The notes beneath the pieces were generated by a model. The model was not told the origin of the DNA. It worked only from the letters and a program-made list of their open reading frames with translations, and did not search any database. Made by a program: the position numbers and the translations under genes. 64,000 nt of DNA from Pelagomonas calceolata (lineage: Eukaryota). The stretch is taken from positions 3,410,001-3,474,000 of the forward strand of contig CAKKNE010000006.1 in NCBI GenBank assembly GCA_918797485.1, read 5' to 3'. Positions 6,299 through 50,309 of this stretch are shown in pieces (position 1 is the stretch's first letter; each line of letters begins with the position of its first letter).

Positions 6299-6552
6299 GT
6301 CAGTGCGGCTTCGCGTCTACAGGTTATGGCAGCGCTGCTACACCTTAGGAAGGGAGAGCACTGGTGGTGCAGCTCAACAGCCGGCTCGAGCGCTCTGGAA
6401 AGTTGCAAGCCCCGATTGTGCAGTAGTAGCAGGACTCTCGCAACGACTCGTACCCAGCGCTGCTGCCTTCTGTGCGGATTTTTGGGCGCTTTGGCTTGGC
6501 AAAAGCTGGGCTAGCGGCATGTAAGACACTAGCAAGCTCCGTAACCGCAGCT

Positions 6553-7746
6553 ATGCCTCGGAACAGTCTTGCGCGGCGAGAGAGAGATGCAAGGCGCACC
6601 GCCCACTGGTCCTGGGCGGCCCATGGCCCCGCGCGACGTTGCTTTTGGCACAGTGTCCTGTTCGTGGGCCGCTCGTCCCACCGCGCCACGCAACGGCCAC
6701 GCTCGCGTGCGCTCTCATACCACAACCGTCGTCGCGGGGCAGCCCGCGGCGGCGTCGCCACGATCGCCGCCGACGACCGGCGGTGGGAGCCCCTCGTCGC
6801 AGCGGGCATCACCTACGCCGCCATGGCCGCCCTGTTCGGCGACGCGACGGACTGGAGCGCCTGCACGGCGCTACTCGCAGCCGGCGGCGTCGGCGCCCTC
6901 GTGAGCTGCGCCTGCGCCATGGGCGACGACGAGCCGACGGCCGAGGACGCGGCCGCGGCCTGGGGCGCGCAACAGGACCCGCGGCCGGCGGCGACCGTGA
7001 CCTGGGACGGCGACAAGCACCCGCCGGCGCCGACGCACCGGGCCGGCGTCCCCCCGGCCTGGGGCGATGCTGATGAGGTGCCCGCGGCGACGCCCGACGC
7101 CGAGCCCGCCAAAAGTAGCTTCTGGGCCGCATCGACGCCCGACGCCGCCGCGACGGCGAAGGCCGCGCCCGCCACGAAGACGAGCTTCTGGGCCGCGAGC
7201 GCATCAGAACCGGAGGAGCCCCTCGCCGAGCCCGTGACCTTCGAGCAGGCGACGGGCGCGGCCCGCCTCGAGGCCGCGCGGCGCTGCCGCGCGGCCGAGG
7301 TGACCGAGTCCGAGCGCCAGTTCATGCGCGAGTTCACGGCGATGATGGCCGCAGGACTCGTCGTTGTTTTAAGAGTGGACGGCTCGGACGGCGTCGCCGT
7401 GACGCTGTCACTACAAGAATTCCGCAACGAGCCCATCCTCGAGTGGCACTTCACGGAGAATGGGGAACGGGGCCGCCTGTCGCTGAGCGACATCCAGACG
7501 GTGCGGGGTCAACAACTGAACGACGAGCTCGCGCGGCGCTCCTTCGTCATCGAGGGGAGAGATAGGGTCCTCGTTTTCCACAGCGAGACGCCGGACATCT
7601 GCGCGCTCGTGATTGACGGTCTGGCGATGTTGGTGGCCGACCATAAGAGACGGGCGGCGCGGCGGCGGTCGTCGCTCGGGCCGGCGCGCAAGGCCATCGC
7701 CGCCCGGCGGAGTTCCCCGAAGAAGCCCCTCGCGGCGAACAACTAG
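6553..7746 (+). CDS. Hypothetical membrane protein with a C-terminal PH-like region (start uncertain)
   Basis: Long ORF with two hydrophobic segments; C-terminal 'LSLSDIQTVRG...SFVIEGRDRVLVF...IDGLAML' is PH-like. Confidence 0.5.
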   Translation: MPRNSLARRERDARRTAHWSWAAHGPARRCFWHSVLFVGRSSHRATQRPRSRALSYHNRRRGAARGGVATIAADDRRWEPLVAAGITYAAMAALFGDATDWSACTALLAAGGVGALVSCACAMGDDEPTAEDAAAAWGAQQDPRPAATVTWDGDKHPPAPTHRAGVPPAWGDADEVPAATPDAEPAKSSFWAASTPDAAATAKAAPATKTSFWAASASEPEEPLAEPVTFEQATGAARLEAARRCRAAEVTESERQFMREFTAMMAAGLVVVLRVDGSDGVAVTLSLQEFRNEPILEWHFTENGERGRLSLSDIQTVRGQQLNDELARRSFVIEGRDRVLVFHSETPDICALVIDGLAMLVADHKRRAARRRSSLGPARKAIAARRSSPKKPLAANN

Positions 7747-7778
7747 ACACCTGACAAGTAAAGAGTGTATATGCATGC

Positions 7779-10644
7779 TTAGAGACCCCCCTTGAACAAA
7801 TTCTTGATGTCCCGGCCCATCGCCTTCGCCCGCTGATCGGTCATGCCGCTCCTAAATTCGGCGCCGCGGCCCTTGCCCGTCGTAGCATTTCGTGCGACGT
7901 AGGCCCAGGGCGGGCTGTTCGCTGATAGCCGCCCGCGCACCGCGTCCAACCTATCAATCTTCCGCTGGTCGAACGCGTCGCCCAGTAAATGGCGCGCTAA
8001 AAAAGAATACGTCTTCTTGACGCACGTCAGCGGTCGTTTGGAGTTGTGGCCGCCCTTCACCAGCAGCAATTCGGCGTCGCGCCGCCGGCAGCCCTTCGAC
8101 GCGTACCGTCTTAGTAAAGCGCCGGCGTTCGCCCTGGGGGGCATCAAACTGTCGTCTGTTGCGGCCACCAGTAATAATGGAGCCTCCAACACTTCGACGG
8201 CTTCCAAGGCGTCGACGTCGTCCACATCTAGCTGAGCCCGCTTCAGGACCTCGGCCCGCACCGCGTCGATGGCCGCCTTGGCTGCACTTTCCGCTAATCC
8301 CGCGCGCGACGGGAAGTAGCTTGAGGAAGACCGTTCACACTTCTCCGTTCGACCCTCCTGGACGTCACGGATGAAGGCGTCGTCAATCGGTCGCTCACCT
8401 TTCTTAATGTCGGAGGGACCGTCACAACCTAAGGCTTCATGCGCCGCGTTCCGCGCGAGTCTATCAACAAGTTGTGATAGGGAAGCAAACGGCGAGTCGG
8501 CGACGACGCACGGAGCGACACCGTTCGGAGAGAATCCGGTTTTCTTGGCTCCTGCCAAAATAGCAGCGACGGCGCCCATGCTTCTTCCGTACAGCGCCAC
8601 CTGACTACAGCGCTTGTTCGCTAGTAAATGAGACGCCACGGAAGATGCATCCGACGCTTCGCGCAGACCCAACGTGACAAACTCGCCCTCCGATGAACCA
8701 GAACCCGTCGTGTCCACGGCGCACACTTTTATACCAAGCATGAGTAAAGGAGCTACGTGCGGCAGCGCTTCCATGCGGCACGACGCGTTGCCGTGCAAAT
8801 ACAAGACGCAAGGTGCTTCAGTAGAAAAGGCCCGAGACCACAAAGAGCACTTGAGCGCTTTCTTCTCATCAGACTGCACGGTAAAGTCCGACCGGACGCA
8901 TTGTACTGTAGTCTTATCTAGTAAAGGCACGTCAAACGATAACGGACCGAGTTCATCCACGGCGTAGGACGCGCGCGGCGGCCTTATAACTAATCGCACG
9001 ACGGCCCGCCACGCCGCCTTGGCCCTTCTAGGTGTTGCCGCCTCCCAAGAAACAGTACCGTCCTTCCTCACGACACGATCAAAGGCGAAGCCCTTCGAGA
9101 CGTGCGCTTCATCCGCGTCCGAGAAACGCACGGACTTTCTGCGTAGTGCGCTTCGACCACCAACTGTCCCTGGAGTTGAGGGCTCGACTCGCTTGCTCTT
9201 CGCAGGCGTAGCTGGTGGTGGCGGCGCCTTCTTCACCGCGGACAACGCGCCGAACGCCGACGCAATAGCTCTAAATGTAGAGGTAGTACCGGCAGAAGCT
9301 TCAATTGCGTCGACCTCGTCCTCGGCCGGCTCCAAGGAGTCGTCGTCGAAGGAATCCGCCGAGGCCGGTGGTTGCGACTTCAGGCGCCGATGCACTGCTA
9401 GTGTTTCGCCGATCGCCGTCCACCAGGCTTTGCACTCTGCTGAATCCGTAGTACAAAAGTGGAGGACCTCCTCGGCCTCTCCCACATTCAGGGTAAGTGT
9501 GAAGGCCCGATCCGACGAGCGCTCGACCCTACAGACCGCCGGGTGGAGCGACAGGACGCGCGCCGTCGCGTTGTGTAGAGACAAAGCCAATCTCCCAGCG
9601 CCTAGATCAGCATCAACCGCTTCGTTGTTCAATAGTAATGAACCTCTTCTTTCGGGCCAGGCCGCGAAGGCGGCCCGATCATCCTTCAGCGGCGAGCGAG
9701 CTAACGCGATCGTCGCCCGATCCCTCGTCATCCGTTGCGCGGATTTCGTGAGCCAGTCCACGACCTGCGTGGAATTCAATCAGTGTGTCGGGTGCACTCG
9801 AGCAAGCGCCGCGTCGATGGCGTACGAACGCGCCGTAAATTTTGATTTCCACGCAGTCCACGACGTCGTGCAGGTCCACGAGGCCGTCGCCGTCGGCATC
9901 ACACGCGTCGAAGGCGTCCCTTAGTACGGGGTCGTCGTCCTCGTAAACCGCTTCCGTACCTAGCGAAGCTATGACTAATGAGGGAAAGGCGTCCCTTGTC
10001 ACAGAACCATCCACACTAAAATGGCCGAAGGCCCGAGCCAACGCGTCGAGGGCCGGTCTTTTTGTCGCTTCCTTGGCCCACCGCTGCAGAACCTTTCTTC
10101 TAGCGTCGGCCTTGGACTTACAGCCCGGGCAGCGCTTTTGCGCGGTCTGGCACCTGCCACAAAGGATCGCGGCGCAGCCGCGGCCGGCGCAGGGCTCCAG
10201 TTTCTTTGTAGAATCGCCGCAGGCGACGCACCAGGCGCCGTCGCCGCTCGCGTCGAGTTTTTTGGGGTCGTCTAACAGATTTTCACACGCGCGCTGCGCG
10301 CGGGCCGTCGTCGCGACCGCCTTTGTGGTGAGCGACGCGCGGCGGCCGGCGGCGTCGACGACGACGGCCGCGGCCGTGTCCGCCGTGACCTTGACGACGC
10401 CGACCAGATCGCCTTTTGACGACGCGGCCCAGCCTTGCGCGCTTCGCTGGGCCAGTTTGCTACACAACTCCGCTGCGGCGCCGTGGGCCTCGCCGATCGT
10501 GTGCACCTCGCCGCCGCGTCGTATCACACCGCAGAGCGGCTCCCCACAGCCGCTGCCTAATCTCGCGAGCGGGCGCGCGCCATCCTTGTGCGCGTTGGCG
10601 TCGTCGTAGGCGTCGTCGAGGTCGAATTGCACGTGGGCGGCCAT
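7779..10644 (-). CDS. Multidomain alpha/beta hydrolase with Cys-rich finger, EF-hand and PH-like region (intron 9765-9864)
   Basis: Splicing restores the EF-hand 'DADGDGLVDLHD|VVDWL'; hydrolase motifs 'YLHGNAS', 'GRSMG', 'GGHN'. Confidence 0.8.
9757..9864 (-). mobile_element. Introner element (9765-9856) with TIRs and perfect 8-bp TSD GTCGTGGA
   Basis: TIR CTGCGTGGAAATCAA / TTGAATTCCACGCAG (14/15); TSD copies at 9757-9764 and 9857-9864. Confidence 0.92.
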
Positions 10645-11210
10645 CGTTTCCTTCTGTGGTTCGTTTCTGTGTTGCCGGCGGCGTGCGCCCGCAAACGCAG
10701 CCGGTTCTCGACGCCTAACAGTCTCTGCGGTTACCGCTCGTAGGGCGCTGAGCGCGCAGTTTTTTCGGCTGGCTGCAGTAAGCGGCTGATAAGCGCAGTG
10801 CCGACGCTACTGGTGTATCAATTGACCGTCGTACGCGGCGTGCGCAAAAGCAGCGGTAAAGCCTCCAAAACTAGAGGCCATAACTAGCGTAGACACAACG
10901 CGGCGCGCCCGTCTCTTTTGGATTTTCAGCATTGCTACCAGGCTTCATTTACCCGCTGTACGACGGCCTTGCGGCAGGCCAACGTGCAGGGCTTGCATGC
11001 ATGTGCACTGCCTTGTCTGCGCATACGCGCGCACAACTAGCCCTCCGTTCGTGACTGCACGTTTTCGGGAGGCGTCTGCACCAGCGAGATAGCCCGTAGC
11101 AGCTCGCGCGGCCCTCGGCTGGGCCTGAGCCAAGGTCAGTGCAGTGAGCTGGTGAGGCTTGTTATTCTCCGCCCCGGTGCGCGACGCCGCGGCGCCAAGG
11201 TTCGTAAACC

Positions 11211-22033: not shown

Positions 22034-22922
22034 CTAGAAGTAGGGGAAGCCCTTGCCCGTGAGCACGGCCTGCGTCACGATGCCCGAGAACGCGAGCATG
22101 GCCAGCCGGCCGTTCTCGAGCTCCTTGAGCTGCATCTCCGGGTCGTTCGCGCCGCCGATCTGGAGCGGGTCGAAGCCGAAGTCTCCCGGCTGGCGCCCCG
22201 AGCCGTCGAGCATCTCCAAAATCGCGAGGTAGCCGATGCACTCGGCGACGGCGATCCAGATGCCGATCTGCGTCATCGCGCCCATGTCCACCGCCATGTC
22301 GTGCGCGTTGATCGACGCCACGTTGTGCATTTCCCCCGGGAGGCGGAACCCCAAGTCCGTCGCGACGAAGCCGACGACCGCGAGCATGCAGACGCGGCCG
22401 TGCTTGAGCTCGCTCTCGCGGAGCCACTCGACGGGCACCCAATCACTCAAACCGAGCGGGTCGAAGCCCTTGTCGCCGACCATGCCCTTGAGCTTCTGCG
22501 GCCGCGGCAGGAAAGGCATCGCGGGCGAGCGCCTGCGTTTTGGGAGGGGTTAGCGGCGCGCGCGTCGTGTGTGTTACGTGTGCCGCCTCTCTCGGTGGCA
22601 CAGCGACGGCGTGCGGGCGGGCCCGCCGACCGCCGACCGCCGTTCTCCGACATCGTGGAAGACGGCGGCCAGAGCCCGCTTTCCGCACGCTCCGCGTCCT
22701 TTGGAGCCTCAGTTAGGTGCGTCGGCATCGTTTGGACGGCCCCAAGGCTTCGCGGGGCCAGCGCGCGCGCGCGCTTTGCGAACCGGCTGCTAATGCTAAA
22801 TCGACGCTGTGGACGCACTCTACGCTGCTAACCTCCGCCGAAAGCTGCGTGGCGGGCCTGGCAGGCGCCACAGGCGCCATTAAGGCGCTTGCACCCGCCG
22901 CGAGGGCCAGGCAGCGCATCAT
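22034..22922 (-). CDS. Light-harvesting chlorophyll a/c-fucoxanthin protein, Lhcr-like (intron 22533-22818)
   Basis: Bipartite presequence; 'SPAMPFL', 'GDKGFDPLG', 'LRESELKHGRVCMLA', 'ELENGRLAMLA'. Confidence 0.93.
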
Positions 22923-23249
22923 ATTGGCCAAATTGCCTATGATCCTGATCAACCATAAAGCTTAGCGGCAGACACACACTAGAATCAAAAAAATTGATTT
23001 ATCTCTCCGCGCGCAAAGAGACCTCCCTTCGACACCCTGGCGCCCGCGCACTTCGCAGCAACACGCAGTCGGCCCTCAGAGAGATGCCTGCCCATCGTCT
23101 GTGAGAGCAAGCGTCCCGCGCGCCGTCCCGCAAGGCATTGCTGCGAAGCTGACCACACGGAGGCCCCTGCGAACTGCCGAGCCCAAGAGGGCAGCCGTTC
23201 GCGGGCTACGGGCAGGAGCACTGCGGTGGCCAAGCACAGTGGCCCCTAG

Positions 23250-23786: not shown

Positions 23787-23796
23787 CACAAATGTC

Positions 23797-25575: not shown

Positions 25576-25977
25576 CGGTGCTCGCGTCGACTTTTGGGGC
25601 ATCGATGCGTCGCGGGCTAGTGCCTGGAGGCTGCCCGCCGGCGCTGGGCTGCAAATGCGCAGCAGAGCGCCGGGCGCTGGCTAGCGGCCGTAAGACACTA
25701 GCCTAGCAATCAGGACGCTGTGATCCTGGGGGCTACCCACGGGCCGTAGACCGGACCCGGGCGTCGCCCACGGAGCCTCAAAAGAGCCCCCGTGGCCGCA
25801 GCGGACGTCGCGCGCGCGGGCAGCCGCCTAGGATCTCGGGGCAGCCCAGGAGGGTCCCACCACTTCACGCGGCACTGACGCCGCCGCCGCGCCCCACGGA
25901 CACCAAGGCAGGCCAGGACAGGAGGCAAGCCCCGACGCCGTCGACGCGACACCACCGACACGCACTGAGACACCACC

Positions 25978-35274: not shown

Positions 35275-35501
35275 GTTATAGTTATGAGTCGCGGCGATGG
35301 CGTGCTGGAGAGGTAGTGTTCCGCTCGGCGGCCTCGAGCGGCGGGTATGCTGTCATGAAAGACACGGCACGCGCCCGTCGCCGATGAATCGGGGGACTCC
35401 GCCCACTAGTCCTAGCACCGTAACAATAGACCCCGGCGGACCCGGTCAGCTCGGCCAGGAGTCCGACAAGCCCGTGCTAGGGATACAACACAAGGACATT
35501 A

Positions 35502-37120: not shown

Positions 37121-37759
37121 ATGCCGTCGCGACGGACGGCGGTGCTGGCCGCCCTCGCGGCGACGGCCTCGGCCTTCGTCGCGCCGAGCCTCCAGGCGCC
37201 CAAGGTCGCGCCGAGGCACGCCCTCGTCGAGGAGGGCGCCTTCGTGCCCGACATGGAGCGCCGGAACATCATGAATTTAATTCTGGTCTTCGGCGGCGCT
37301 TTACCTGCCGTAGGTGGATTAGCTATCCCGTACCTCCTCTTTTTCATCCCGCGCGGCGGCGGCGGCGGCGGCGGCGGCCTGCCCGCCCTGACGAAGGCCG
37401 GCGACCAGGTGACGTTCAAGAGCTGGCTCGACTCGCACCAGGTCGGGAGCAGAGAGCTCGTCCAGGGCCTCAAGGGCGACGCGACCTACCTGATTGTCGA
37501 CGACAACAAGCAGATCCGCGACTACGGCATCAACGCCGTCTGCACGCACCTGGGCTGCGTCGTGCCGTGGAACAAGGCGGCGAACAAGTACATGTGCCCC
37601 TGCCACGGCTCGCAGTACGACGAGACGGGCAAGGTCGTCCGCGGGCCGGCGCCGCTGTCGCTCGCGCTCGCGCACATCACGGACAACGCGGGCGTCGTCA
37701 CGTTCACGCCGTGGACGGAGACGGACTTCCGCACGGGGCTGAACCCGTGGTGGAAGTAG
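37121..37759 (+). CDS. petC: Cytochrome b6f Rieske Fe-S subunit, plastid-targeted
   Basis: 'ASAFVAP'; '[11 protein letters not shown]'; '[10 protein letters not shown]', 'CPCHGSQY', 'GPAPLSLAL', 'WTETDFRTG'. Confidence 0.98.
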
Positions 37760-38227
37760 ATTTCCTCCCCCCTGTCTAACAAAAACTCGCGTTTATTTTG
37801 TGTCTCGTCGACGGCGTGCGGGTGGCCGTCGTGTCGATGGCTTCGCGTCGATGGCTTTCGGGTGGCCGTGGCAGTGCCCGGCGCACATCGCACCGCTCCG
37901 GACGTCCCGAGACGACGGAGCACTGGCACGACCCCCGGGCGCGTCCCCTCCGGGTAGGGCGCGGCGGCCCCCGATGCGCCCCCGGTGCGGACCTGAGATT
38001 CCGGCGTCCGGCCTGCTCCCCCCTCGCCGCCGTCGCCTCCGAGCTAACACCCGGGGCGACGGCGTACGAGGGCCGGGGGCGGGGCGGGCGTGCGGTCACG
38101 CAGACCCCGCGGCGGCCGGGTGGCTAGGTAGCCTAGCTCTAGGCAAAGCAAAGCGGGAAAAATAGCAGGCGCCGCGCCGGCCGGGTGGCTAGGCAATCTA
38201 AGGAACGCAAAAATCACACATCCGCCA

Positions 38228-40255
38228 CTACTTAAGCATCTGCCACAGCGACCGCCGCTCATAGTCGTCCCGGCGCAACGGCCGCCCCCGCCGCAACGCC
38301 GCGGACAGGGACCGCGCGGGCAGCGTGTCCAAGGGAGGGAGCTTCTTTGTTGTATAAGGCGTCCGCGTGTAGAAGAACTCTTCCTCTTCATCAGAATCGG
38401 AAGAGTCATAGTAGCGACTTTTGGAAGGAGACGCCCGCTCCAGGGCCCGGACGCGCGCTTCTAACATCTCAACCTTGGACCGCGCGGCCGTCGCGATCTT
38501 GGCCCAGTCCGGCTCCGGCGAGAGCGGCGGCAATTTTTGTGGAGGCGTGACGGGCCGCGGCGTTTGGACCGGCGCCGGCGGCTCGTAGGCGCACGCCGCC
38601 TCATGTTTTTCGACGTCCCCAAACGAACCGGTGAAGCCGCAGCCTCTTTCACAGGCGTACTCCTCCTCTGACGACTCCACAGAGACGGGAGGCGCCGCCG
38701 CGACCCTCTGTAATACCTCCTGTTCTTCTGGAGAGAAGGCGACGAGGTGCACTCTGTCCAAACCCTCGAAACACGCGTCGCGAAGGGCCTCGACCGCTAT
38801 CATCAGGACGTCGTCCAGTGACCGGCTCCCTCGAAAGACGCCCGCACTCAGCAACGAAAAGGCGACCGTAGAACAGTCCTGGTCCCGCGCTAATCGCATC
38901 GCCTCCCCATAAGCGCTCCGCAGTAGCGCGTCGCCCTTCTTCAGATCCACTTGTCGGTAATCGGGCCCGACGGCGTGAATGACACAAGCGCAGCGCAGGG
39001 ACCCGAAGGAACCCGACGTGAGGACGGCGTCTCCAGTATGGCAGCGCTTGTCGTCGCTCACAGGTAAGGCCTGCCGCGCCTCCGCTAGTGAAGCCCCGCC
39101 GGCTCTCGTGATGGCGCCGTCGGCGCCACTCCCGCCCAGACATCGCTCGTTCGCCGCGTTCACGATCGCGTCGACGTGAGCGTCCACCACGCTTCCAGAA
39201 GACACAACTAACTCGCCGTGCGTCAACGCATGCCGCTCGATCTCGACGAGGCCATCTGTCAACCCATCGTCGGGCGGCGCCACCCGTTGTAAAGCCTCTC
39301 TACAAGCTTCTAGGGAGGGGTGGTCCCCGCCACAGATCGTTAATGCGTGCATGTACAATTCATAGGCCGTCTCTATTTCACTCAAAGCCTCGTGCGCGCT
39401 GCCCAACAGCAATATACTAGCGACGATCTCCGCGCCCTTCTCGCCGTGCCTGTCCATGTCCAACTCCAAGGCGCGGTCAAACACATGCGAAGCTTGTTCA
39501 TAATCTTGGAGGCCGAAGTACGCCCCTCCCACATTATGCAGCGTACTCGACTCGACCGTGTCTTCCCGTTCTTCGATAGCTAATGCTCTACTAAATAACG
39601 TCAACGCTCGTTCGTGGTCGCCGATCTCAGAATAGGCCACTCCACAGTTGTTGAGGGAGGCCACGAGGTCTGCGTGGGCGGGCCCGTACTCCCGCTCCTC
39701 GATGGCTAGGGCCCGTTCCAGGACCACCACCCTTTTAGCGTGTTCTCCTGTCGTAGCGTAGACCTGGCCCAGGTGCATGAGCGTGATCGCTAAATCGGCG
39801 TGGTCGCGCCCCAGTTCCCGTTCCTCAATCGCCAAAGCTCGCTCGAGCAACTGCTTCTTCCGCGCGTCGTCCCCCAATTCCCCATGCGCTAAGGCAAGTT
39901 CATACGCCGTCTGGGCGACAGCAGCGTCGTCCTCTGTGTAGTTGTCGAGGGCGCGTTCGAGCAGATCCCGCTTCGTCGCGTGGTCGCCCAAGTCGCCGTG
40001 CGCATTGCCCAACGAATGGAGGACTGCTGACGCTTCCAATGAATCGCGTCCATTATGTCGGATGGTGAGCTCCAAGGCGCGCTCGAGCGTGTCGACCGCG
40101 TCCCGATGCTCGCCTAGCGCCGCGTGCGTCTCGCCCAAGCTCTTGAGCGTCTCGGCGAGACGCGGGTCCGACCTCCCGAACTGGGTCTCCTCCATCCTTA
40201 GGGTCTTCGCGAACACATCTCTGTTTTTAGCAAGAGCATCGTCCCCGGTCGCCAT
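38228..40255 (-). CDS. TPR-repeat + Macro-domain protein
   Basis: Repeated 'LERALAIEERE.G.DH' TPRs; Macro motifs 'DAIVNAANERCLGGSGADGAI', 'VIHAVGP', 'AFSLLSAGVF'. Confidence 0.9.
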   Translation of the reverse strand: MATGDDALAKNRDVFAKTLRMEETQFGRSDPRLAETLKSLGETHAALGEHRDAVDTLERALELTIRHNGRDSLEASAVLHSLGNAHGDLGDHATKRDLLERALDNYTEDDAAVAQTAYELALAHGELGDDARKKQLLERALAIEERELGRDHADLAITLMHLGQVYATTGEHAKRVVVLERALAIEEREYGPAHADLVASLNNCGVAYSEIGDHERALTLFSRALAIEEREDTVESSTLHNVGGAYFGLQDYEQASHVFDRALELDMDRHGEKGAEIVASILLLGSAHEALSEIETAYELYMHALTICGGDHPSLEACREALQRVAPPDDGLTDGLVEIERHALTHGELVVSSGSVVDAHVDAIVNAANERCLGGSGADGAITRAGGASLAEARQALPVSDDKRCHTGDAVLTSGSFGSLRCACVIHAVGPDYRQVDLKKGDALLRSAYGEAMRLARDQDCSTVAFSLLSAGVFRGSRSLDDVLMIAVEALRDACFEGLDRVHLVAFSPEEQEVLQRVAAAPPVSVESSEEEYACERGCGFTGSFGDVEKHEAACAYEPPAPVQTPRPVTPPQKLPPLSPEPDWAKIATAARSKVEMLEARVRALERASPSKSRYYDSSDSDEEEEFFYTRTPYTTKKLPPLDTLPARSLSAALRRGRPLRRDDYERRSLWQMLK

Positions 40256-40724
40256 GGGGCTGCCCTTTCCTACGCAGCGGTGCTCCTTTACTTAAAGTCG
40301 CTTGCGCTGGGTCGTGTGTCGTTGCCCGAGCACCGGTGGCTGCGACGGTGCCGCGAGAGCGTCTCAGGCTGCAGCGCCGCAAGACGCGCTGTCCAGGGTG
40401 GCGGGTTTTTGGTGGAACCACCGCAGCCGTCGTCGAGGGAGAGGTCTGCGGCTACCGTCTATGGGGAATGCTGCGAAGGTGGGCGCTCGGACATCGAGCT
40501 GGCCCATCCTGCGCGTCTCTGGTGGCAAAGCGGCACTCCCGTCGGACGCGACCGAGGCACGGCGGGGAGCTCGCAACCACACGACTGCTGTGCGTTCCGA
40601 GGCAACTGAACCCAGCTGGAGTTCCAGCACGTAACTCTTCGGCCCACCTGAGCACAACCTGTGGGCTTGCCCGCCTGAGACGCCCGACGCCGCGGACGGG
40701 GGCGACCCAAAGAAGAAGGACACC

Positions 40725-41567
40725 ATGTCGACGGCCCGGACCGAGACGCGCACGAGCTCCTGGCGCACGCCTACTTTGAGAGGCCTCCGTCAGTCGCTCT
40801 CCGTCACGAGAAGGACAAAGCAGCCGGTCGAGGAGCCTCTACAACTGGACGCGGGCGGCCTGCGGAAAGCATTAGCAATTGGCAGCGACCTCATAGCATC
40901 GCCGACCGTGGACCACGTGCGCCAGCAGCGCGCCTGGGATTGCGGACTCGCGTGCGTCCTCATGGCGGCTCCGCACGCGCGACGACAAACCAAGTCGGAG
41001 GTGAAGTGGAATGACGTGGAGAAGGCCTGCGGCACGCGCTCCGTCTGGACCGTGGATTTGGCCTTTGCATTAAGGGCGTTGGGCTGTCGGGATTTTCTCT
41101 TTTTAACGAAGACGACGGGCTGCGATCCTTCCTACGCGCGGCTCGCGTTCTATCGGCGGGACCTCGGCGCTGATTCTACTAGAATCCAGTCGCTGTTTCG
41201 ACGGGCGCAGAACGGGGAGGTTTCCGTGAAAAGGGCAGTCGCGACAAGGGACGGGCTGCTCGAGGTCCTGCGGACGGGGCGGGTCCTGGCGATCGCGCTC
41301 GTCGATTTGCGGCTGCTGCACGCGCGCGCGGCGCGGACGTCGCTTCTACCTAGGTCGTACACGGGCCACTACGTGTTGCTGGTGGGCGCGGAGGGCGACC
41401 GCGTGCGCTACCGGGACCCGGCGGCGGACCGCGCGGAGCTGGTGATCGACGCGGATGATCTGCATCGGGCGCGCGTCGCGCACGGCACGGACGAGGATTT
41501 GATCCTCGTCGCGGTGGATACCTCGGAGACGGCGGAGGCGCTGCCGCCGATCCGGGGCGTAAGGTAG
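40725..41567 (+). CDS. GUCD1-like (C39-peptidase-fold) protein
   Basis: 'HVRQQRAWDCGLACVLM', 'SVWTVDLA', 'YTGHYVLL', 'YRDPA', 'GTDEDLI'. Confidence 0.88.
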   Translation: MSTARTETRTSSWRTPTLRGLRQSLSVTRRTKQPVEEPLQLDAGGLRKALAIGSDLIASPTVDHVRQQRAWDCGLACVLMAAPHARRQTKSEVKWNDVEKACGTRSVWTVDLAFALRALGCRDFLFLTKTTGCDPSYARLAFYRRDLGADSTRIQSLFRRAQNGEVSVKRAVATRDGLLEVLRTGRVLAIALVDLRLLHARAARTSLLPRSYTGHYVLLVGAEGDRVRYRDPAADRAELVIDADDLHRARVAHGTDEDLILVAVDTSETAEALPPIRGVR

Positions 41568-41660
41568 TCTTCTTGTTTATATTAGTCGCGGAGGCTGGGA
41601 ATGAATTGGGGGGTGAATTGCGCCATGGAGCGAGCACCGTCGTGGCGGCGGCGATGCGAG

Positions 41661-43105
41661 TTAGCACTCTGGTTCCGGCTCTGGCTCCTCCGTCGGCGTC
41701 GCGCGCCACGACGCAAACCAGCCCTCCGGCGGCGGCGGCGGGCTCTCGGTTAGCATCTCGACCGCTTGGGCCTTGATAGGGGGCAGGGGCGGCGGCGCCG
41801 ATGGCACGGCCGGGCCGGTGGATGCGTCCATGAAAGCGTTGGTCACCGGGACAAAGCCAGGCCACCCTTCAAGCTCCTCGGGGCGCGTCGGGAAGGAGCC
41901 CCATTGTTGGTGCAACGCCGCTTGCGCAGGCGCCTCGTACCAGCCGACCATTCGTCCGTGGGCCTCGTGGAGCTTGGAGGGTTTTTTCTTCAACCGAACG
42001 TAGCTTGCATATGAGAGGCACCCGCACACGCAGATTGCCACGACGCAGGCTATGATGATGATGAGCAGCGTGGCGTTGTCTCTCCGTTTCTTCTTGTTGT
42101 CCCACCTCGTCGTCGGCGTGCACCATGTCGTCGGCGTGGCGGTCGGGGCGTAGGTCTCACATGCCTCCTGGTAGTTGGCGTCGCCCGGCTCGCACTCCCT
42201 AGTCGACCACTGGTAAAGCTGGTTGTACGAGCAACCAACGCTATCGCAGATGCCATTCGACAGGGGCGCTGCGCACAATTCCTTCCCTTCGTTGTAGCAC
42301 AGTTCCATGGCCTGGTGCCAGGTCTTGGGGTCGCCCAGAACATTCCATGTAGCCTCGTAAAGACCCGCGAAGCAGCCGTCATTGTTAGCACCAACCCGCC
42401 GATGACACACGCCGGCGTCGTCGCAGCATCCGACCCCTATGTAAACCGGAACACCGTTTTCATCGGGAACAAATTCCAAGGCCGGGCTAGTCGCGCAGTA
42501 GACGTCTGCCAAACCACGACCGGAAACAGAACCATGCGATGGTTCCTGTAGATGGAGCTTCACGCCGCACGCTGGGAACATATTATGCGTCGGTAGGGGC
42601 GTCGGTTGGGGCAGCGTCGGCTGACACGAGACCGTCGGCTGAGGCGAGACTGTTGGCTGGAACGTCGGCGACGGGACGCAGCACGCATAGCTGCCCTTAT
42701 GTAGAACGACGTTGGTCGAGCTCCACCAGCCGCTGTCAGGATGGGGCGTACCAAGATAGTCGGTGTGCTTCCTGCACATGCCACCGGCCTGCGTGGATAA
42801 GAGTAAAGTCTAAACCTGCTGTCTGTGGAGAGAACACCGCCACTCGCCCGCGTCCCGACCTGGACCCAATTCTGGGTCCCCTCGCCGGGTCCGGGAATGA
42901 TCGGCGCCCACATATCGTGACCCGCTTGCTGTCCACCCACGGGTTCTGTATTGGGCCCTCCGCCCGGGCACAGCTGGTCATAGGTACACAGCTGCTCGTC
43001 GCAGCTCGCCTTCATTCCGTTATAGTCCTTGTTGGCACCATCCTGGTACCACACGACTTGTTGGCTCGCAGCAGCCACCAGCACAACCGAGGCTGCCCGC
43101 AACAT
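41661..43105 (-). CDS. Single-pass Cys-rich surface protein (intron 42789-42847)
   Basis: Signal-like N-terminus, Cys-rich ectodomain, QPT repeats, 'NKKKRRDNATLLIIIIACV' TM, Pro/Glu tail. Confidence 0.7.
42781..42847 (-). mobile_element. Degenerate mini introner (42789-42839), TSD GCGAGTGG/GCCGGTGG
   Basis: Ends CGGTGT ... TTATCCACGCAG; TSD 6/8; GC-AG phase-0 intron. Confidence 0.65.
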
Positions 43106-43490
43106 ATAGCTCGCGAGCGCGCCCCCGGGGCAGCTAAAAGCGAGAGCGGCTGCTAAAACGAGCGCGCCCAAGCCTCATGCGGCCTCAGCCAGGCCTTGGT
43201 TGCTTCATCGTCGTTTGGGCAGCCGACACCTTGCTCATGGGCAGCAATAACTGCCTTCCAGGCTGCCCCACCGCGTTCTAGATCTTGAGCTGCGGCATCC
43301 CTAGTGTCTTACAGGCCGCTAGCTCTATACGTGCAGTACCGTAAGAATAATGCCTATACGTGCCTAATTAGTCGCAGAGGATGCGCCGGTCCCGATGGGG
43401 AATGAATGGGGGGGGTGAATTGCGCCATGGGGCGAGCACCGTCGCGGCGGCGGCGATGTCGATGGTGCGTGGGCGCGCGTGAGCTTCATA

Positions 43491-44462
43491 TTAAGCTTCG
43501 GGTTCGAATGCGAGTTCTTTTTCACGCTCCGCGCGCAATGTAGAGAATGGACTCAACGGAGGCGGCCGTTCGGCCTCCTCAGGTTCGGGCTCTGCGCGCC
43601 CGAACCACCAGCTTTTCGCGGGCGGAGGAGGCGGCTCCTCGGCTTCTCGTTCGGCTTGCGGCTCAGCTTCCGGGGCGATAGAGAGGACGGTGGCCTCTTC
43701 TTCTGGAGCCGGCGTGGGCCCCTCTGGTTCCTCCAGTGGCTCGAGGTTTGACTTGGTGCCCTCACGGCGGCGGCGTTCGCAGCAAAATCCAACGATGCAT
43801 AGTCCTAAGACCGCGACGCAGGCTATGATGACGATGACCAGCGTGGCGTCGTCTTTCCGTTTCTTCTTGTTGGCCGGCATGGCGCTCGGGGCGTGAGTCG
43901 CGGTCGGGGCTGCGGTCGGGACATTGACGCACGTGTACATCTTGCCGTGTCCGTGGGACCCGACAAAATCCGAGGTCCAAGTGGAACCGTCCCAATGCGA
44001 TTCGGGACAACCATTTTCCGACACAGTTGTCACGGAGCCGTCATTGTAGCCAAGCTGCTGACAGAGCGCCGTGGCATCAATCTGCTTGTCGGGCGCATTG
44101 CACATCCCGCCACCCTGAGAGCAGCAGCTGCCATCGTAGTAGCATTGGTTGATCGACGAGACGCCGTGGCACGAGCGCATGGTGTTACTGCTATCATCAG
44201 AGGAAGAAGAACCAAAGGTAATGCCCGTACCAGTGTCTGTGCAGCTGAAAGTGGAAGGGTCGCAGTCGAGATAATGACAATTACTACAGCCGATACAACC
44301 GATGAACTGAAGCTCATTGTTGGTGTAGGCGCCAAGGGCGACGCCGGAGGCAGCATAACCCCAGACGGTGCCGCTGTAGAGGATGTCGCTGCATTGGGCT
44401 GCTGGTGTCACACAAGGAATCGTGCTTGTGGCCAATAGCACTCGCAGCATTTGTGTCTTCAT
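43491..44462 (-). CDS. Single-pass Cys-rich surface protein
   Basis: Signal-like N-terminus, Cys-rich ectodomain, 'NKKKRKDDATLVIVIIACV' TM, Pro/Glu tail. Confidence 0.75.
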   Translation of the reverse strand: MKTQMLRVLLATSTIPCVTPAAQCSDILYSGTVWGYAASGVALGAYTNNELQFIGCIGCSNCHYLDCDPSTFSCTDTGTGITFGSSSSDDSSNTMRSCHGVSSINQCYYDGSCCSQGGGMCNAPDKQIDATALCQQLGYNDGSVTTVSENGCPESHWDGSTWTSDFVGSHGHGKMYTCVNVPTAAPTATHAPSAMPANKKKRKDDATLVIVIIACVAVLGLCIVGFCCERRRREGTKSNLEPLEEPEGPTPAPEEEATVLSIAPEAEPQAEREAEEPPPPPAKSWWFGRAEPEPEEAERPPPLSPFSTLRAEREKELAFEPEA

Positions 44463-44707
44463 CGTTGCTTCATCGTTTGGGCAGCCTTAACCGACTTCTA
44501 GGCTGCCCCACCGCGGTCGAGTCTCGAGCTGCTAGTGTCTTACAAGCCGCTAGGTCGCAGCTCTGCGCGCTTCGCCCTTCTGAGTCCGCAGCGGCTTTCC
44601 GGGGGCTCTCAGGACATATTCCTCCAGCTATTTTCACGCCCTGTCTGTTGCCAGGAGTTTTACGCGCCGCCGCTGTGTAAATCCGGCAAGCGCTCTCAGC
44701 CTTTCAA

Positions 44708-45784
44708 ATGGACGGCGCCAAACCGATGCCTTCCGCCGCCGACAACGATGCCTCCGGCGCCTCGGAGGCTGCGAAACGGCCGCGGGAGGACGACGCCGCG
44801 CAAGACGAAGCCAAGCGGCCGCGCGCCGACGACGCGCCCGCGCCGACCAACAACGCCATGCAAGACGCCACCGCTGCGCCGGTCCCCGCGCAAGACGCTG
44901 TGCCGGACGCGCAAGACGCCGCCACGCGCCAGAACCTCGAGGCCCGCTACGTCGGCCTGACTTTTATTGATGACGACGCGGCGGGCGAGGGCGCGCGCGA
45001 GATCGTTCGGATCGACAAGGCCGGCGCCGTGTGGACGGTGGTCGCGGCGCAAATCACCAACAAGGAAAACGAGCAGCCCTACCTCGTCAACGAGGCGTTG
45101 GATGCCATGGTCGACGCCTACCGCTGCCGGGGCGACGCCCGCCACGAGACGTGCGCCTGCCCGCCGCCGCGCGGCCACACGATCGAGGTCCTCTGGGAGG
45201 TGCACGACGAGGAGACGAATGAAGCGAGAGACGTCTGGTGGCGCGCGGTTGTCGGCGAGGAGGACGGCAGCGGCCACGCGCTCGACAACGGCGACGTCGT
45301 CCTACGGAAATATTCTGTAGAGTACGTCGCGCGGCCGGAGCTGTCCGAGCCGGCGCCGGCCTCATACAATGTGTGCTTCCTCTCGCCGCGCGCTTTATTA
45401 GATTGCTCGGGTGATGTGGTCATGCAGTGGCGGTCCTTTGGCAGTAATGATCAGCCGGACCCCGCGCTCGTCGAGGCGTCGCTGGACGCGGACGTGGAGA
45501 ACGCGCTGCCGATAGCCCAGCCGCGGACGCCCGCCGGGAATGTGGACGAGAGCGTGGATGTGGTCGTGGCGCGGGTCATCGGCGACCACAGCGCGCGCAT
45601 CCAGAGCCTGCCGGCGGACCAGCAGTGCGCCGTCGCGGATCGGGTGGTGGACGCGAAGGAGCGGCTCAAGGGCGCGTTGAAGGCCCATTTACTGGCGCGG
45701 CCCGATCCCGCGGCGCCCGTGACCCCGGAGGACGTGCATGCAGCCGTGCGGTCCATGGCCGCCGCGCGCCCGGACGAAGGGTAA
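44708..45784 (+). CDS. Hypothetical protein
   Basis: 358-aa ORF with strong GC3 bias; 'IEVLW...WWRAVV' may be a Tudor-like barrel. Confidence 0.6.
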   Translation: MDGAKPMPSAADNDASGASEAAKRPREDDAAQDEAKRPRADDAPAPTNNAMQDATAAPVPAQDAVPDAQDAATRQNLEARYVGLTFIDDDAAGEGAREIVRIDKAGAVWTVVAAQITNKENEQPYLVNEALDAMVDAYRCRGDARHETCACPPPRGHTIEVLWEVHDEETNEARDVWWRAVVGEEDGSGHALDNGDVVLRKYSVEYVARPELSEPAPASYNVCFLSPRALLDCSGDVVMQWRSFGSNDQPDPALVEASLDADVENALPIAQPRTPAGNVDESVDVVVARVIGDHSARIQSLPADQQCAVADRVVDAKERLKGALKAHLLARPDPAAPVTPEDVHAAVRSMAAARPDEG

Positions 45785-45801
45785 AGCTCTGTACAACTAT
45801 T

Positions 45802-46641
45802 TTAAGACTGCCCTTCCCCGGGCGCGCACGACTTCTTCGTCGCGCGCCGCCGCTGGTCCGAGCCGCGGCGCTCCGCCTCGCCGGCGGGTCCGCCCCCGTC
45901 GAACGTTTCCGTGAAGTCGAACTCAACGGTTGCCGGCGGCTGCCCTGGATCGGGCGTCGGGGGGTTCGCCGAATTCGGCGGCTTGCGCTTTCCCCCGAGT
46001 TCCGCGGGCCCCGCTCGAGGGGGAGGCGGCGGCGTGCGCTCGCGGGACGGAGACCGACGAAGAGGCGCGGGCCGCGGTACGGCGCGCTGGGGGGCCGCGG
46101 CCAAGGCCCTCGCAGACGACTGAGCCAAGAGCGAGGTCGAGGCAGGTCGTCTTTGCACCTCCCGGAGCGCCTTCTCGGCCGCCCGGCGTGCCTTGCGCTC
46201 TTCCGCGAATTTAGATTGAAGGGCCAGGTTGCCCCGGTCGGCGATGCGGAGCTCCTCCTCGAGATCGTCGGCGCGCTTCCTTTCTGCGACGGTGCACGCA
46301 TCCGCGTCGCGCGTCTTGCGCTCGGCCGCCTCGCGCGCCTTGCGCTCGGCCGCCAGGCGCTTCTCCAATTCCGCCGCGCGCCGCTCCGCTTCGGTCGCGC
46401 GTTGTGTCGTCGCCGCGAGCCGGGCTCGGAGCTCCGCGTCGTTACCGCCGTCGAGTTGCATCGGCTCCGCGCCCGCCGGCGCGGCGGCGGGCTGCGCGGC
46501 GCCCGCGGAACCGTTTTTTGCGTCTCGCAGCGCTTGCGCGATCGCAGCCTTCGATGCCTCGAGGGTGTCTGCAAAATCGTCCGTGGGCCCAGACGCTGCA
46601 TCCGCGAACGGTCGCATCGCTGCCTGCAGTGCTTGAATCAT
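45802..46641 (-). CDS. Coiled-coil hypothetical protein (start uncertain)
   Basis: Heptad-rich A/E/R segment followed by a Pro-rich tail. Confidence 0.5.
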   Translation of the reverse strand: MIQALQAAMRPFADAASGPTDDFADTLEASKAAIAQALRDAKNGSAGAAQPAAAPAGAEPMQLDGGNDAELRARLAATTQRATEAERRAAELEKRLAAERKAREAAERKTRDADACTVAERKRADDLEEELRIADRGNLALQSKFAEERKARRAAEKALREVQRRPASTSLLAQSSARALAAAPQRAVPRPAPLRRSPSRERTPPPPPRAGPAELGGKRKPPNSANPPTPDPGQPPATVEFDFTETFDGGGPAGEAERRGSDQRRRATKKSCAPGEGQS

Positions 46642-46880
46642 CCTGCTCGTGTCGATTGACGACGAATGCTGCCGCCGCGGAGGAGCTCACCCACAAAAAC
46701 GCTGCAGCCGAAACCCGCGCGATACTGAAAACGCATTAACATCGTTGTGGGCGGCCCGCGGACTCGTTCGGGGCCCCCCGGGAGGATTACTAGTTCCGCC
46801 TTCACCGCACGCGTGCGTTTTTGCGTTGCAGTGCTCTTGTTGACAGTGCTCTTGATTGACAGATCGATTATTCAGTGATT

Positions 46881-47261
46881 ATGGCGGGCGCTCTCGTGTC
46901 GCACCTCATTCAATTCATGATCAAGCACCCGGAGGCCGCCGCGTGTTTCGTCCTCGGGATTTTCACAGGCATCATTTTATTGATCCTCTACAGCTACGGT
47001 GCGTTCTCGCGAGTGGAGACGGCCATCTGTGACCTCTTCTCAATCTCAGAGGTCAGACATTTCATCGGCATATCGATTAGCTTCATCGTCGGCGACAAGC
47101 AGCTCGCCGCGCGCCTCGAGGACTACGACGAGATGATCATTCCGTTCCTCATCAAGGCCAAGGACCACCTCGCGCGCGCCGGCCCGGCGCGGCCGGGCCA
47201 GCGCATGATTATGGCCGGTTCGGCCACGGCCGACGCCGACCGCGCCGACGGGAACGTCTAG
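46881..47261 (+). CDS. Small hypothetical membrane protein
   Basis: ORF with the hydrophobic helix 'CFVLGIFTGIILLILYSYG'. Confidence 0.4.
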   Translation: MAGALVSHLIQFMIKHPEAAACFVLGIFTGIILLILYSYGAFSRVETAICDLFSISEVRHFIGISISFIVGDKQLAARLEDYDEMIIPFLIKAKDHLARAGPARPGQRMIMAGSATADADRADGNV

Positions 47262-47547
47262 ACGTGTCCGCGCGCACGTCGGGTAACACTGTAAATAGAC
47301 GAACTTCCACCATAGCGTGCCGGCAACTCAGGACGCTTCTTCCGACGCCGCTCGGCTCTACGAGCCCGCTTCTCCTCGGCACGATCTTTGATTCGTTCTA
47401 GTGGTTGTAAGACACTAGCCAGCACCAGATATTATTGCATTGCAGTCGGAGTGCCTGCTAAAGCAAAGGTTTCTCGATTGAATCGCTGCTGGAAATTCGC
47501 TCCGCGCAGCGCTTCCAGCCCGCCTCGAAAGCGCGCGCGCCGGCATC

Positions 47548-49650
47548 ATGATGCCGCGCCGCACCCTCATCCTCCTCGCCCTGCTCGGCGTCGCGGCGGC
47601 GTCGTGGCGCAATGCCGCGAAGCTCGCCTGCGCCGGCGCGTTCCTATCAGCAGTACTCAATGGCGTCGTCGACCGCATCCACGGCATCGTCGACTACTCC
47701 TGGAACTCGCCGCCGCCGCCGGAGAGCTGGAATCGGACGCTCGCGCCGGAAGAGCTGGAGGCCATGAACTCCGCCATGCGCAACCTGTCGGCTGCCCAGG
47801 CCCAGGGCTACGACGCGTTCGTAGCGAACTACAACTTCACGAAGAAGACAGTCGAGCTGGCCCTGCGCGGGCAATTGCCGACGGAGCAAGAAGACTGCTC
47901 GAACCCCGACGTGCCGCTGCAGGCGCCGACGACGGCGCCTGACGTCGTGCCGATGCAGGCGCCGACGACGGCGCCGACGAGGACGCCCACGGGCGCTCCC
48001 GCGCGGCGGCGGCACCGGAGACGACCGCTCGCGCCCGCGTCTCTACCTCTCGAATCGCATCAGTGACTCGTTTGACTCGTTATGTGCGCACAGGTTCACG
48101 CGGGTGAACCGGCGCAAGCCGGCACATAATTGGCCTGCTTGTCGCGGCACCGAGCTCTGCGCCGACAAAGGCCTGATCGAGGCGCACCTCCTCGTCCTGG
48201 GCACCTTCGATGATCTGGAACAAGCAAAGGCGGAGCTTTTGACGATGGTTTCTACTATATTTGGACCCGATACCTGGGACGCGCGCCGTCAGGCGCAGAT
48301 CGTGGAACTTTTCCGTCTGTACTCTAATGGGAACGTCGCGCTCGGTCCTTTAGTAGATAAGGTACTCGAGGCGCGCGGCGAGCTGGGCGCCTTTGATCCG
48401 GGAGGTATACTGGAAAATATAGGAGAAGCTCTCTTCCAAGCCGGCCTCGTGGCAATCGAGGACGGCGTTCTCGTCGATGGTCCGCGGCTCGTACGAGCAC
48501 GCGATGCTTTAGTGGAGAAGCGGGGCTACAGCCCCGACTCGAACGCGGTCCGGTCGTTAACTGTCGAGACCACGCTCGTCGTGTGGTTTAATTTGGTGCT
48601 TTCGGATCTGGAACTGCAGAAGGCAGTGCCGCTGCTCGCAAGCGCCAGCGCCTATATTCTCAGAACCTTCTTCGCGGTTTCTACTGTTCTTCACTCGTCT
48701 ACCTTCAGCTATCATAACTCACTGTTGTTCCACGCAGGTCTATCCCCATTGCTTCTGGGGCGCATACTCGATGGTCGCCGTGCAGAAGTTCCCGGGCCTG
48801 CTGAACGACTTCTGGAAGGCTGGCGCCGGAGAATCGCTCACGTTGGTGGCTTCGGGCGACAAGTCCGCCTACAAGCTCATGGTCAAGGCCTGCGCCGACG
48901 CCTACCCCTACGTGATCGTTCGTGGCGCGCTGTGTCGAATTAAAAGGTCGTCTTCTATGAGACACGCCGCGTTGATGGCTGCGTCGCGACGACGGCAGCG
49001 TTGCGTCGATGGCGCCGCGTCGATGGCGCCACGTCGCGTCGATGGCGTCATGTCGATGGCGTCGCGTTGATGGCCGCATCGACTGTGTCGCGTCCATGGC
49101 GTCGCTTCGCGTCGATGGCGTCGTGGCTTCGAGAGCGTGGCGCTGGACATGGCCTCGACGTAGCCCAACGAGAGTCGAGCTGCTCGCGCCGACGCTGCGA
49201 CTCGTCGATTTCCACACAGGTCGCCTGGAGAAGTCCTTGCTCAAGGACCTCCACGACGAGAAGAAGATGCAGAAGAAGCTCTACGACGCGATCAAGGGGT
49301 CCGACGAGCAGTGGACGTTGGTCTTCGCAGTGAAGGACGTGGTCGTGAAAAACGGTGCGGATCCTGGGATTCGCGCCATCTACTACGTTGAACTACCCGC
49401 GGACGAGACGTTTTCGACGGTGGGCCTGCAGAAGATCGACAACGTGCCTGCTCTCACGACGCCTTTTGCGTATTTGACGGTCGCCGTAGCTCAGGCCGGA
49501 CGGGCGCAAGCGGGCGGCTCTATCGTCGTCGTGTTCAACGAGAAGTTCGCGCCGCGGAAGGCGCCTCGCACTACCCAAGGCTTGCCGTTCGGCTACAACG
49601 ACAAGGAGCAATACCTGAGGGCGTGCCTCGAACAGGGGCGCGTCCTTTAG
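47548..49650 (+). CDS. Multi-exon hypothetical gene (introns ending at 48093, at 48677-48737 and at 48922-49219)
   Basis: ORFs 48104, 48771 and 49009 join in phase at GT-AG sites; the donor linking ORF 47548 is uncertain. Confidence 0.5.
48922..49227 (+). mobile_element. Older introner (48930-49219) with internal GCGTCGATGGC repeats
   Basis: Ends CTGTGTCGAATTAA ... TCGATTTCCACACAG; TSD GTGGCGCG/GTCGCCTG (5/8); phase-1 intron. Confidence 0.75.
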
Positions 49651-49936
49651 CGTGTGACCGCGACGTTTCCATCAAAATGAATCAGGGCCACGAATAGCGG
49701 CTCGCAGCCGCTCGCGTGGAATAGCAGAAGTATTAATCGTTCTGAATTGTATATGGGGTTACAACAGTCGCTGCGGTCCGACGAGGAGAGCGTGCGATCG
49801 GAGCAGGAGGGGTATTGACGTAAGATATCTCACTATTCTTCAGCCGGTTCGCACGCCTCGACAGCGAGAACTAACGACTGAGGAACACACCCTCGCGGCT
49901 CCCGGAAGCTCCGCGGACAAACCTGCGCGTTCCGAT

Positions 49937-50060
49937 CAGGCTCAGGCTAATTACGTCGCGGGGTCCCCCGTACCCCTCCCGCTCCCCCCGGGCCCACCCA
50001 GGCTCAGGCTAATTACGTCGCGGGGTCCCCCGTACCCCTCCCGCTCCCCTCGGGCCCACC
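49937..50060. repeat. Tandem duplication, 2 x 62 bp
   Basis: caggctcaggctaattacgtcgcggggtcccccgtacccctcccgctcccc(c/t)cgggcccacc occurs twice with one mismatch. Confidence 0.92.
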
Positions 50061-50309
50061 CGTCCGGCTGGACTAGGACGCAGCCGTATTGCTAGTATCT
50101 TACCGCTAGCTCGATGGCAAACGGCGCGGCTGATCACGGATTTTGAGTCAGTCAGTCGCTCCGCTGGGAGCTGGTGCACCACCGCTCGCCCCCAAATTTG
50201 AATCTCCGCCCAGCTGCTCGAAATCCAGCCGCGCCGCGTGCGCAGCCCACCGGTCACCGCTCCAGCCCAAGGAAGGGATTGCGGCGCGCGCGACCAGACC
50301 GCGGCGCGC

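Follow-up and report, generated by a model that had tools for sequence, protein, structure and literature searches.

Yeast general regulatory factors open promoters bidirectionally (PMC3875857; here and below, PMC numbers refer to excerpts of the articles concerned), and the fission-yeast factor Sap1, one site of which lies within the Tf long terminal repeat (LTR), establishes open promoter regions, gives rise to polar fork barriers and draws in Tf1 (PMC5371812). Here we describe a 22-bp element that recurs upstream of genes in a 64,000-nucleotide stretch of the Pelagomonas calceolata genome (contig CAKKNE010000006.1, positions 3,410,001 to 3,474,000; the window) and compare it with these and other systems. 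Bipartite and pseudo-palindromic, this promoter sequence is composed of CTAGCG (left or CG arm), 6–12 variable bases, CACTAG (right or CA arm) and a CAAGC-like tail; it is apparently undescribed, behaves like the site of a general factor and carries unusual signs of copying. As with the sites of Reb1, Abf1 and Rap1 (PMC3875857), it is found in many unrelated promoters, is not strand-specific and is tied to bidirectional starts; unlike them, it is far longer and less variable (22 bp, with one sequence dominant), has a spacer of 6–12 bases and terminal CTAG repeats, and shows the signs of copying. Fission-yeast Sap1 appears to be the closest working parallel, likened by behavior and not by sequence or protein relationship: the shared traits would be one site together with an open promoter, a polar attraction of mobile elements, and carriage of the site by such an element, there the Tf LTR (PMC5371812) and here a repeat that resembles a miniature inverted-repeat transposable element (MITE). 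In contrast to the Sap1/Tf1 case with its LTR elements, the DNA inserted beside our element consists of short repeats and a footprint-like 8-mer.

A sequence-only reading of the window had noted eight copies, all of which we recovered, position and strand included. The six long ones fit CTAGYGGN{1,3}GTAAGACACTAG, a pattern with no match in dinucleotide shuffles (0/100). The general form CTAGYG-N6-12-YACTAG occurs at 10 sites in the window versus a mean of 0.09 (maximum 2) in 300 block shuffles and adds two sites, 1341-1359 and 13571-13592, to the eight. These members and one degenerate relative are as follows (loci outside the window bear L numbers; ATG denotes a start codon):

6511..6532, + strand: 22-bp element in a divergent spacer, 212 nt from the ATG at 6298 (−).
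15101..15118, − strand: 18-bp short variant; the homologous L008 spacer has a full copy in opposite orientation, inside replaced DNA.
17867..17888, + strand: exact consensus copy between the RNA 3′ end of a 6PGD gene (17975-17977) and the ATG at 17680 (−).
25681..25701, + strand: 21-bp copy in a divergent spacer; RNA 5′ end at 25738, 37 nt off (14 molecules of depth 61).
43301..43322, − strand: exact consensus copy; RNA 5′ end at 43261, 40 nt off (7/12), and RNA 3′ end of the upstream gene at 43438.
44532..44553, − strand: 22-bp copy in a divergent spacer, paralogous to 43301, with homology that stops at the left (CG) arm.
47398..47418, + strand: 21-bp copy with a TG left arm, kept at 20/21 positions in the homologous locus L114.
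50092..50109, − strand: 18-bp short variant; RNA 5′ end at 50151, 42 nt off (5/21).
1341..1359, − strand: added member of 19 bp with intact arms and diverged centre, in a divergent spacer.
13571..13592, − strand: added member of 22 bp with intact arms and diverged centre, upstream of an F-box-like paralogue.
22961..22982, + strand: degenerate member with a broken left arm, 24 nt from a strong RNA 5′ end at 22937 (631/852).

Compared as inverted repeats, the two halves agree at 7/11 positions including CTAG, which at the same time forms a short direct repeat at both ends of the element. The arms are asymmetric: CG...CG was seen once and TG...CA three times. At the non-seed sites, CTAGCG and CACTAG are spaced by 7–12 bases (n = 25, 14 of them at 10), with none at 0–6 or 13–30, and differences in length are located in the centre; the 17 right halves found beyond the seeds all have their left arm (17/17). 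The flanks are likewise graded and asymmetric: G precedes 126 of 152 sites and CAA follows 64, with RG before 88 and CAAG (CTTG on the other strand) after 36 of the same 152, and the base directly outside is G in 83% before and C in 76% after. Since the outward flanks of the two sides agree at position 1 only, a symmetric target preference does not hold. Helitrons start with 5′-TC, end with CTAG-3′ and insert between A and T (PMC4778049); we rejected a Helitron end, as the element ends in CTAG but also starts with it and is flanked by the G and C just described. Rejected, too, was the truncated 3′ end of a non-LTR long interspersed nuclear element, given that 5′ truncation is absent from the 17 right halves and no duplication was found.

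The position of the element relative to genes was determined with gene ends taken from a codon-usage model trained on 24 open reading frames (ORFs) of the window. Predicted coding sequence (CDS) holds one of 154 sites. All eight noted sites are intergenic and face an ATG about 70–285 nt away (~250 bp at most in the sequence-only reading), and their use in either orientation is borne out as well: of 103 cases on the CG side, 80 look toward a gene start (median ATG distance 181 nt), and on the CA side this holds for 71 of 89 (median 174 nt). Two further claims need trimming. The neighboring genes are unrelated in the sense that their Pfam domains are diverse, but 43301 and 44532 belong to the promoters of tandem paralogues and therefore are not independent copies; and the promoters said to be often divergent are so in three of the eight cases (6511, 25681, 44532), whereas the other five sites lie in tandem spacers. 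Among spacers not chosen by the scan, a site is present in 30/91 of promoter type versus 0/55 convergent ones (p=9e-8); convergent spacers are shorter, and a length-corrected test on the full set gives 1 observed versus 9 expected (p=8e-4). Moreover, sites occur singly: just 3/71 occupied spacers hold two (19% expected, p=4e-4), and a second site within 250 nt accompanies 2/84 seeds. Where the spacer is divergent (25 cases), the site takes a middle position (median 0.51) and keeps a distance of 55 nt or more from either ATG. Stranded reads place RNA 5′ ends at 43261, 50151 and 25738, which is 40, 42 and 37 nt from the edge of the respective site and on both sides of the element; the ends listed near the element cover 3/8 noted sites at low counts (7, 5 and 14 molecules). 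At 43301, the element is situated between the upstream RNA 3′ end at 43438 and the next 5′ end at 43261.

This arrangement bears on a reading of the element as an RNA or single-strand hairpin that would serve, for example, in termination or processing. A stem of 6–7 bp can form, and a copy is traversed by one transcript that originates from another locus (loose ends 6507/6537). Set against this, sites lie between RNA 3′ and 5′ ends (43438/43261), are orientation-free and are missing from convergent spacers; the hairpin, at −4.6 to −5.0 kcal/mol (z −0.2 to −1.2), is no more stable than in shuffled sequences, which led us to reject a stable hairpin, and a search of the element against Rfam gave no match, so that an Rfam RNA family was rejected as well. 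We consider the hairpin reading largely refuted and very improbable. We also dropped a splice-site reading (GTAAG...TAG), since either orientation is used and the listed RNA joints include none at this place. As a separate observation, the window contains an RNA-supported intron with GC...AG ends at 48638-48737.

A second candidate promoter motif, GGGCAGCC, reaches 0.7–1.0 per kb in promoter spacers versus 0.08–0.13 in CDS and convergent spacers, often as inverted pairs (e.g., at 43240-43270 and 44480-44510 of the window).

Sequence variation among copies is unevenly distributed over the element. In unanchored non-seed matches with at most 3 mismatches (n=14), an arm is changed in 1 case versus 63% expected under neutral decay (p=3e-5). 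Changes in the centre favor certain bases (position 9 is C>A in 25/30), comprise 57 transversions versus 16 transitions as compared to a ratio of about 1:1 in four homologous alignments, and are found in several cross-wise combinations; the seeds fix positions 7 and 11–16, so change counts there are not free. Near-invariant arms, a variable centre and graded flanks look like a bipartite site recognized by a protein, as judged from the pattern of substitutions; the site of Abf1 is bipartite and resembles this two-arm layout. Variation of this kind, akin to a position weight matrix with preferred alternatives, would also be expected from an ordinary long transcription-factor site held by selection without any copying, in which adjoining repeats (E1–E3, see below) would be co-factor sites or passengers and flips would result from template switching.

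An all-against-all comparison of loci, from which the paralogous L006/L086 were left out, produced two near-identical and eight diverged pairs, some of the latter possibly paralogues. Both near-identical pairs keep the site. Of the eight diverged pairs, three keep it, three have it reversed, one lacks it in one member and one shows it decayed, which amounts to a difference in orientation, presence or integrity in 5/8. The kept sites are 47398/L114 (20/21), L110/L118 (22/22) and L009/L025 (19/22, arms intact); in the last two pairs, element and arms, respectively, are conserved while the flanks align at 43–61%. Reversal took place within replaced DNA in 15101/L008 and L032/L109, whereas in L003/L088 the centre is inverted and the arms are perfected; the site is absent at about 46640 of the window relative to L115 and decayed in the pair L038/L113. 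This turnover between homologous promoters points to copying. For the site maintained by selection alone, the L088/L003 pair is the product expected of a template switch; but between related lineages the reversals inside replaced DNA (15101/L008, L032/L109) and the gain or loss at L115/~46640 would each need a fresh near-consensus 22-mer, reversal and gain in replaced DNA require copying, and extended flanks are common to some copies (right flanks share at least 8 bases at 22/153 sites versus 6 expected). We therefore judge a site without copying to be rather improbable.

The idea of a tiny mobile element or its footprint with a duplicated CTAG, which had been offered in the sequence-only reading, is partly supported by the turnover and by the flanks that a minority of copies share, both signs of copying. 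In its strict form, the 14 inner bases would be the functionless scar or remnant of a promoter-targeting cut-and-paste transposon that duplicates CTAG, or TA within CTAG. The sharp ends with CTAG on both sides, the two halves that always occur together, the length changes confined to the middle and the prevalence of one exact 22-mer (48 of the 123 metagenome matches listed) all fit such a scar, as does a similar shorter insert that is polymorphic at the right arm (L095 versus L005; 43301 versus 44532) in both orientations and a mixed form. However, a clean empty allele with a single CTAG was seen in neither of the two pairs with a missing or decayed site, a small sample; no DNA joint that skips a site is among those listed for X1, X4 and X11, whose reads apparently stem from one genotype; the flanks are strongly asymmetric and tied to orientation; the arms do not decay neutrally and sites do not pile up. 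Outer target duplications were rejected, with none detected and a permutation test for variable duplications giving p 0.3–0.8, and the flank analysis led us to reject inverted flank extensions. Among 139 neighboring and 44 window ORFs there is no transposase, HUH, integrase or reverse-transcriptase domain, and no full-length transposase-bearing partner came to light in the ~370 kb covered. A scar of this type thus seems doubtful to us.

Rolling-circle elements offer another comparison for the oriented flanks. Replitron-1 inserts after RG, its terminal repeats are direct and its right ends fuzzy, and Replitrons have been reported from Pelagophyceae (PMC10288648). IS91 has CTTG as its target and CTCG as its end (PMC13181058). 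The element shares with them its direct terminal repeats, its oriented flanks (RG before, CAAG after) and a minority of copies with extra flanking DNA, so that it could be the smallest unit of a Replitron- or IS91-like HUH element; nicks would fall at CTNG words, and read-through would have brought along E1 and the CAAGC tail. Unlike Replitrons and IS91, it measures only 22 bp, far less than the 52–53 bp termini common to Replitron-1 and N1, has a weak hairpin, and comes without a variable target duplication or, in the 183 ORFs scanned, an HUH gene; the restriction to one site per promoter and its central position would be left unexplained. We regard a rolling-circle origin as improbable.

The right-hand side of the element is a place where other DNA adjoins. 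A short insert (GCATCC or its reverse complement, with close variants) follows 9/157 right arms, 0/149 left arms and 2/1168 other CTAGs. It is polymorphic, with insert and second CTAG in L095 and neither in L005 (97.9% identical), and exists as two reverse-complement forms and one mixed form; under a stricter definition, 6/7 insert-bearing sites are exact consensus copies (p=0.004). Two features of the window belong here:

43293..43300, − strand: 8-nt footprint-like insert at the right-arm edge of the 43301 copy, missing from the paralogous promoter at 44532.
49936..50082, no strand assigned: E2, a high-copy G/C-rich repeat in two tandem units, beside the right arm of the 50092 copy.

Judged by its form, the right-arm insert resembles an excision footprint, although the L005 state could alternatively arise by deletion between CTAG repeats. 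Footprints of Tc1/mariner-type transposons usually measure 2–3 nt, and Sleeping Beauty leaves a reverse-complement pair. The 8-nt insert is like these in being bounded by TA, polymorphic and present in two reverse-complement forms plus a mixed one, and unlike them in being longer; the 22-mer itself departs from them in its asymmetric flanks and the lack of an empty allele among the pairs compared. The signature of a footprint fits the separate, shorter insert beside the right-hand CTAG.

Larger repeats adjoin the element too. E2 (unit of ~62 bp, G-rich strand), which has a contig depth of up to ~3,500 versus ~10 and also occurs within transcripts of other loci, adjoins the CA side in the window, in L004 (1223-1333) and in seven of the joints listed. 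E3 (~75 bp; window 35365-35428; L023, L044, L068) contains CACTAG followed by a second CTAG and adjoins the CA side in 3/5 copies; its tail is the element's right flank in L073. A MITE-like element (L016:3795-3930, L067:1-70, L100:583-612, L208:1469-1549), whose terminal repeat is a palindrome of ~28 bp, carries a perfect-armed variant of the 22-bp element in L016, L067 and L208. On the opposite side, all 10/10 matches (9 non-redundant) of the upstream element E1 (alignment A1) adjoin a site at its CG side, with no significant link between E1 and non-consensus copies (2/14 versus 46/137, p=0.23). Taken together, the insert, E1, E2, E3 and the MITE-like carriage show that small mobile DNA concentrates at the element, predominantly on one of its sides. 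Two other repeats were seen in intergenic DNA: telomere-like TTAGGG repeats at L016:4000-4180, followed by E1, and a 190-bp sequence common to window 19958-20147 and L037:5575-5754 (88% identical).

A protein-bound site that opens promoters gives the best account of where the element lies, of its occurrence as a single copy and of the constraint on its arms. We give about even chances to the specific proposal of a general promoter factor site of the Sap1/Reb1 type that was seeded by copying. The promoter factor site suggested in the sequence-only reading (there alongside an insulator factor) accordingly gains from position, one site per promoter, arm constraint and nearby RNA 5′ ends, while binding itself is the presumed part. 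A general regulatory protein would bind the element, exclude nucleosomes and keep the promoter open, and transcription would start ~40 nt away on either side. New copies would arise by copying and not by point mutation; candidate routes are carriage by small mobile elements, of which the MITE-like element with its variant may be an instance, templated repair and, for some flips, template switching in place. The right-hand side may be a hot spot for breaks and insertions, as at fission-yeast Sap1 sites.

Several observations weigh against this explanation. Five of the eight noted sites are without an RNA 5′ end among those listed, weak RNA ends are also listed within genes, the strong start at 19749 has no site at all, and the very strong start at 22937 has only the degenerate one, 24 nt off. 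Two-thirds of promoter spacers lack a site. Lone half-sites show no enrichment in promoters and were rejected as a general promoter signal. Gene ends derive from the codon-usage model, so some spacers classed as tandem are in fact introns; the flanks of the two best-conserved pairs are highly diverged, which allows for independent arrival; and no copying enzyme was found among the ORFs mentioned above. Finally, targeted insertion would fit the promoter-limited position as well. As to the start at 22937, it is the sharp 5′ end of a very highly expressed gene (22034-22937) with an intron at 22532-22817.

In an alternative proposal, the 22-bp unit would be a self-spreading promoter seed and, for promoters, the equivalent of introners. 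As a mobile unit of minimal size, it would insert into promoters, be tolerated for the bidirectional promoter signal that it supplies, and displace the resident site. About a third of promoters would have been taken over, and other small transposons would home to its right arm. Such a unit, which we think unlikely, would parallel pelagophyte introners in that small repeats have spread in a position-restricted manner through a compact pelagophyte genome (PMC9481584); unlike introners, which are ~200 bp long, intragenic and spliced (PMC9481584), the element is 22 bp long, intergenic and outside transcripts at the mapped sites. An introner-like repeat family does occur inside genes of the window (9765-9856, 55623-55818, 59712-59853) and of L014, L026, L051, L053 and L080, with a contig depth of ~111,000 versus ~185 at 9845.

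The host assignment is in line with the sequence content. The window is gene-dense, has 63% G+C and encodes photosynthetic functions (Mg-chelatase, PetC, ferrochelatase); the closest named relatives of its PetC are the pelagophytes Chrysophaeum (77%) and Aureoumbra (73%), and the genome of P. calceolata is described with 63% G+C and 16,667 genes (PMC9481584). A metagenome scan yielded at least 121 further loci with the element, and a protein that adjoins it in one of them, L022, is identical to a P. calceolata entry, the only species-named one among the 9/10 proteins matched. Metagenomic loci of at least 4 kb contain 21 extra general-form sites in 170 kb, a density similar to that of the window. 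For near-consensus copies, 6 in the 64-kb window contrast with 1 extra strict-pattern copy in the 170 kb of metagenomic flanks, so either the window holds more of them than is usual or repeats of this kind interrupt assemblies. With a genome size of ~32 Mb for P. calceolata, extrapolation from the 21 sites per 170 kb leads to roughly 4,000–5,000 sites genome-wide. Additionally, summed contig depth at 6519 is 109,429 versus ~185 for single-copy DNA, which, depth not being equal to copy number, suggests hundreds of near-exact copies.

A search of the literature on the element's sequence and on pelagophyte and stramenopile promoters, with subscription journals and Repbase outside its coverage, listed nothing on the element and no promoter element described for any pelagophyte. 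The available main text of the P. calceolata genome paper does not contain the word motif (PMC9481584), and its supplements could list repeat families; the excerpt of a catalogue of Phytophthora factors mentions CTAG only inside a heat-shock site (PMC11267843). At an extrapolated ~4,000–5,000 places, a single 22-bp element would give ready access to the way promoters are built in a globally abundant alga and might serve as a part in compact bidirectional promoters. Through its turnover and the adjoining insertions, wild populations could be used to approach an old question: how long regulatory sites come into being and spread, and whether promoter factors and mobile DNA have targets in common. 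Should the promoter-seed proposal be true, a minimal unit would sit in roughly one promoter in three of a eukaryote that ranks among the most abundant in the ocean.

Viral and prokaryotic collections hold no comparable family. The strict pattern has 0 matches in viral collections and a looser one has 6, all unrelated; the prokaryotic collection (596 Gb) contains 72 loose-pattern matches, mostly lone and scattered or from one conserved Caulobacteraceae locus. About seven of the prokaryotic matches have algal-like flanks and lie close to the ends of contigs from marine metagenome-assembled genomes (MAGs); we took them as likely chimeras and not as a sign of bacterial spread of the element, which in ten such genomes is not above control except for a few algal-like sites. 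Marine prokaryotic MAG contigs with algal-like DNA at their ends, likely chimeric, underlie L124, L125, L136, L150, L153, L157, L180 and L208. The Caulobacteraceae loci (within L131-L193) share a conserved intergenic site like the element in ~30 Caulobacteraceae-type genomes, which we treated as a coincidence.

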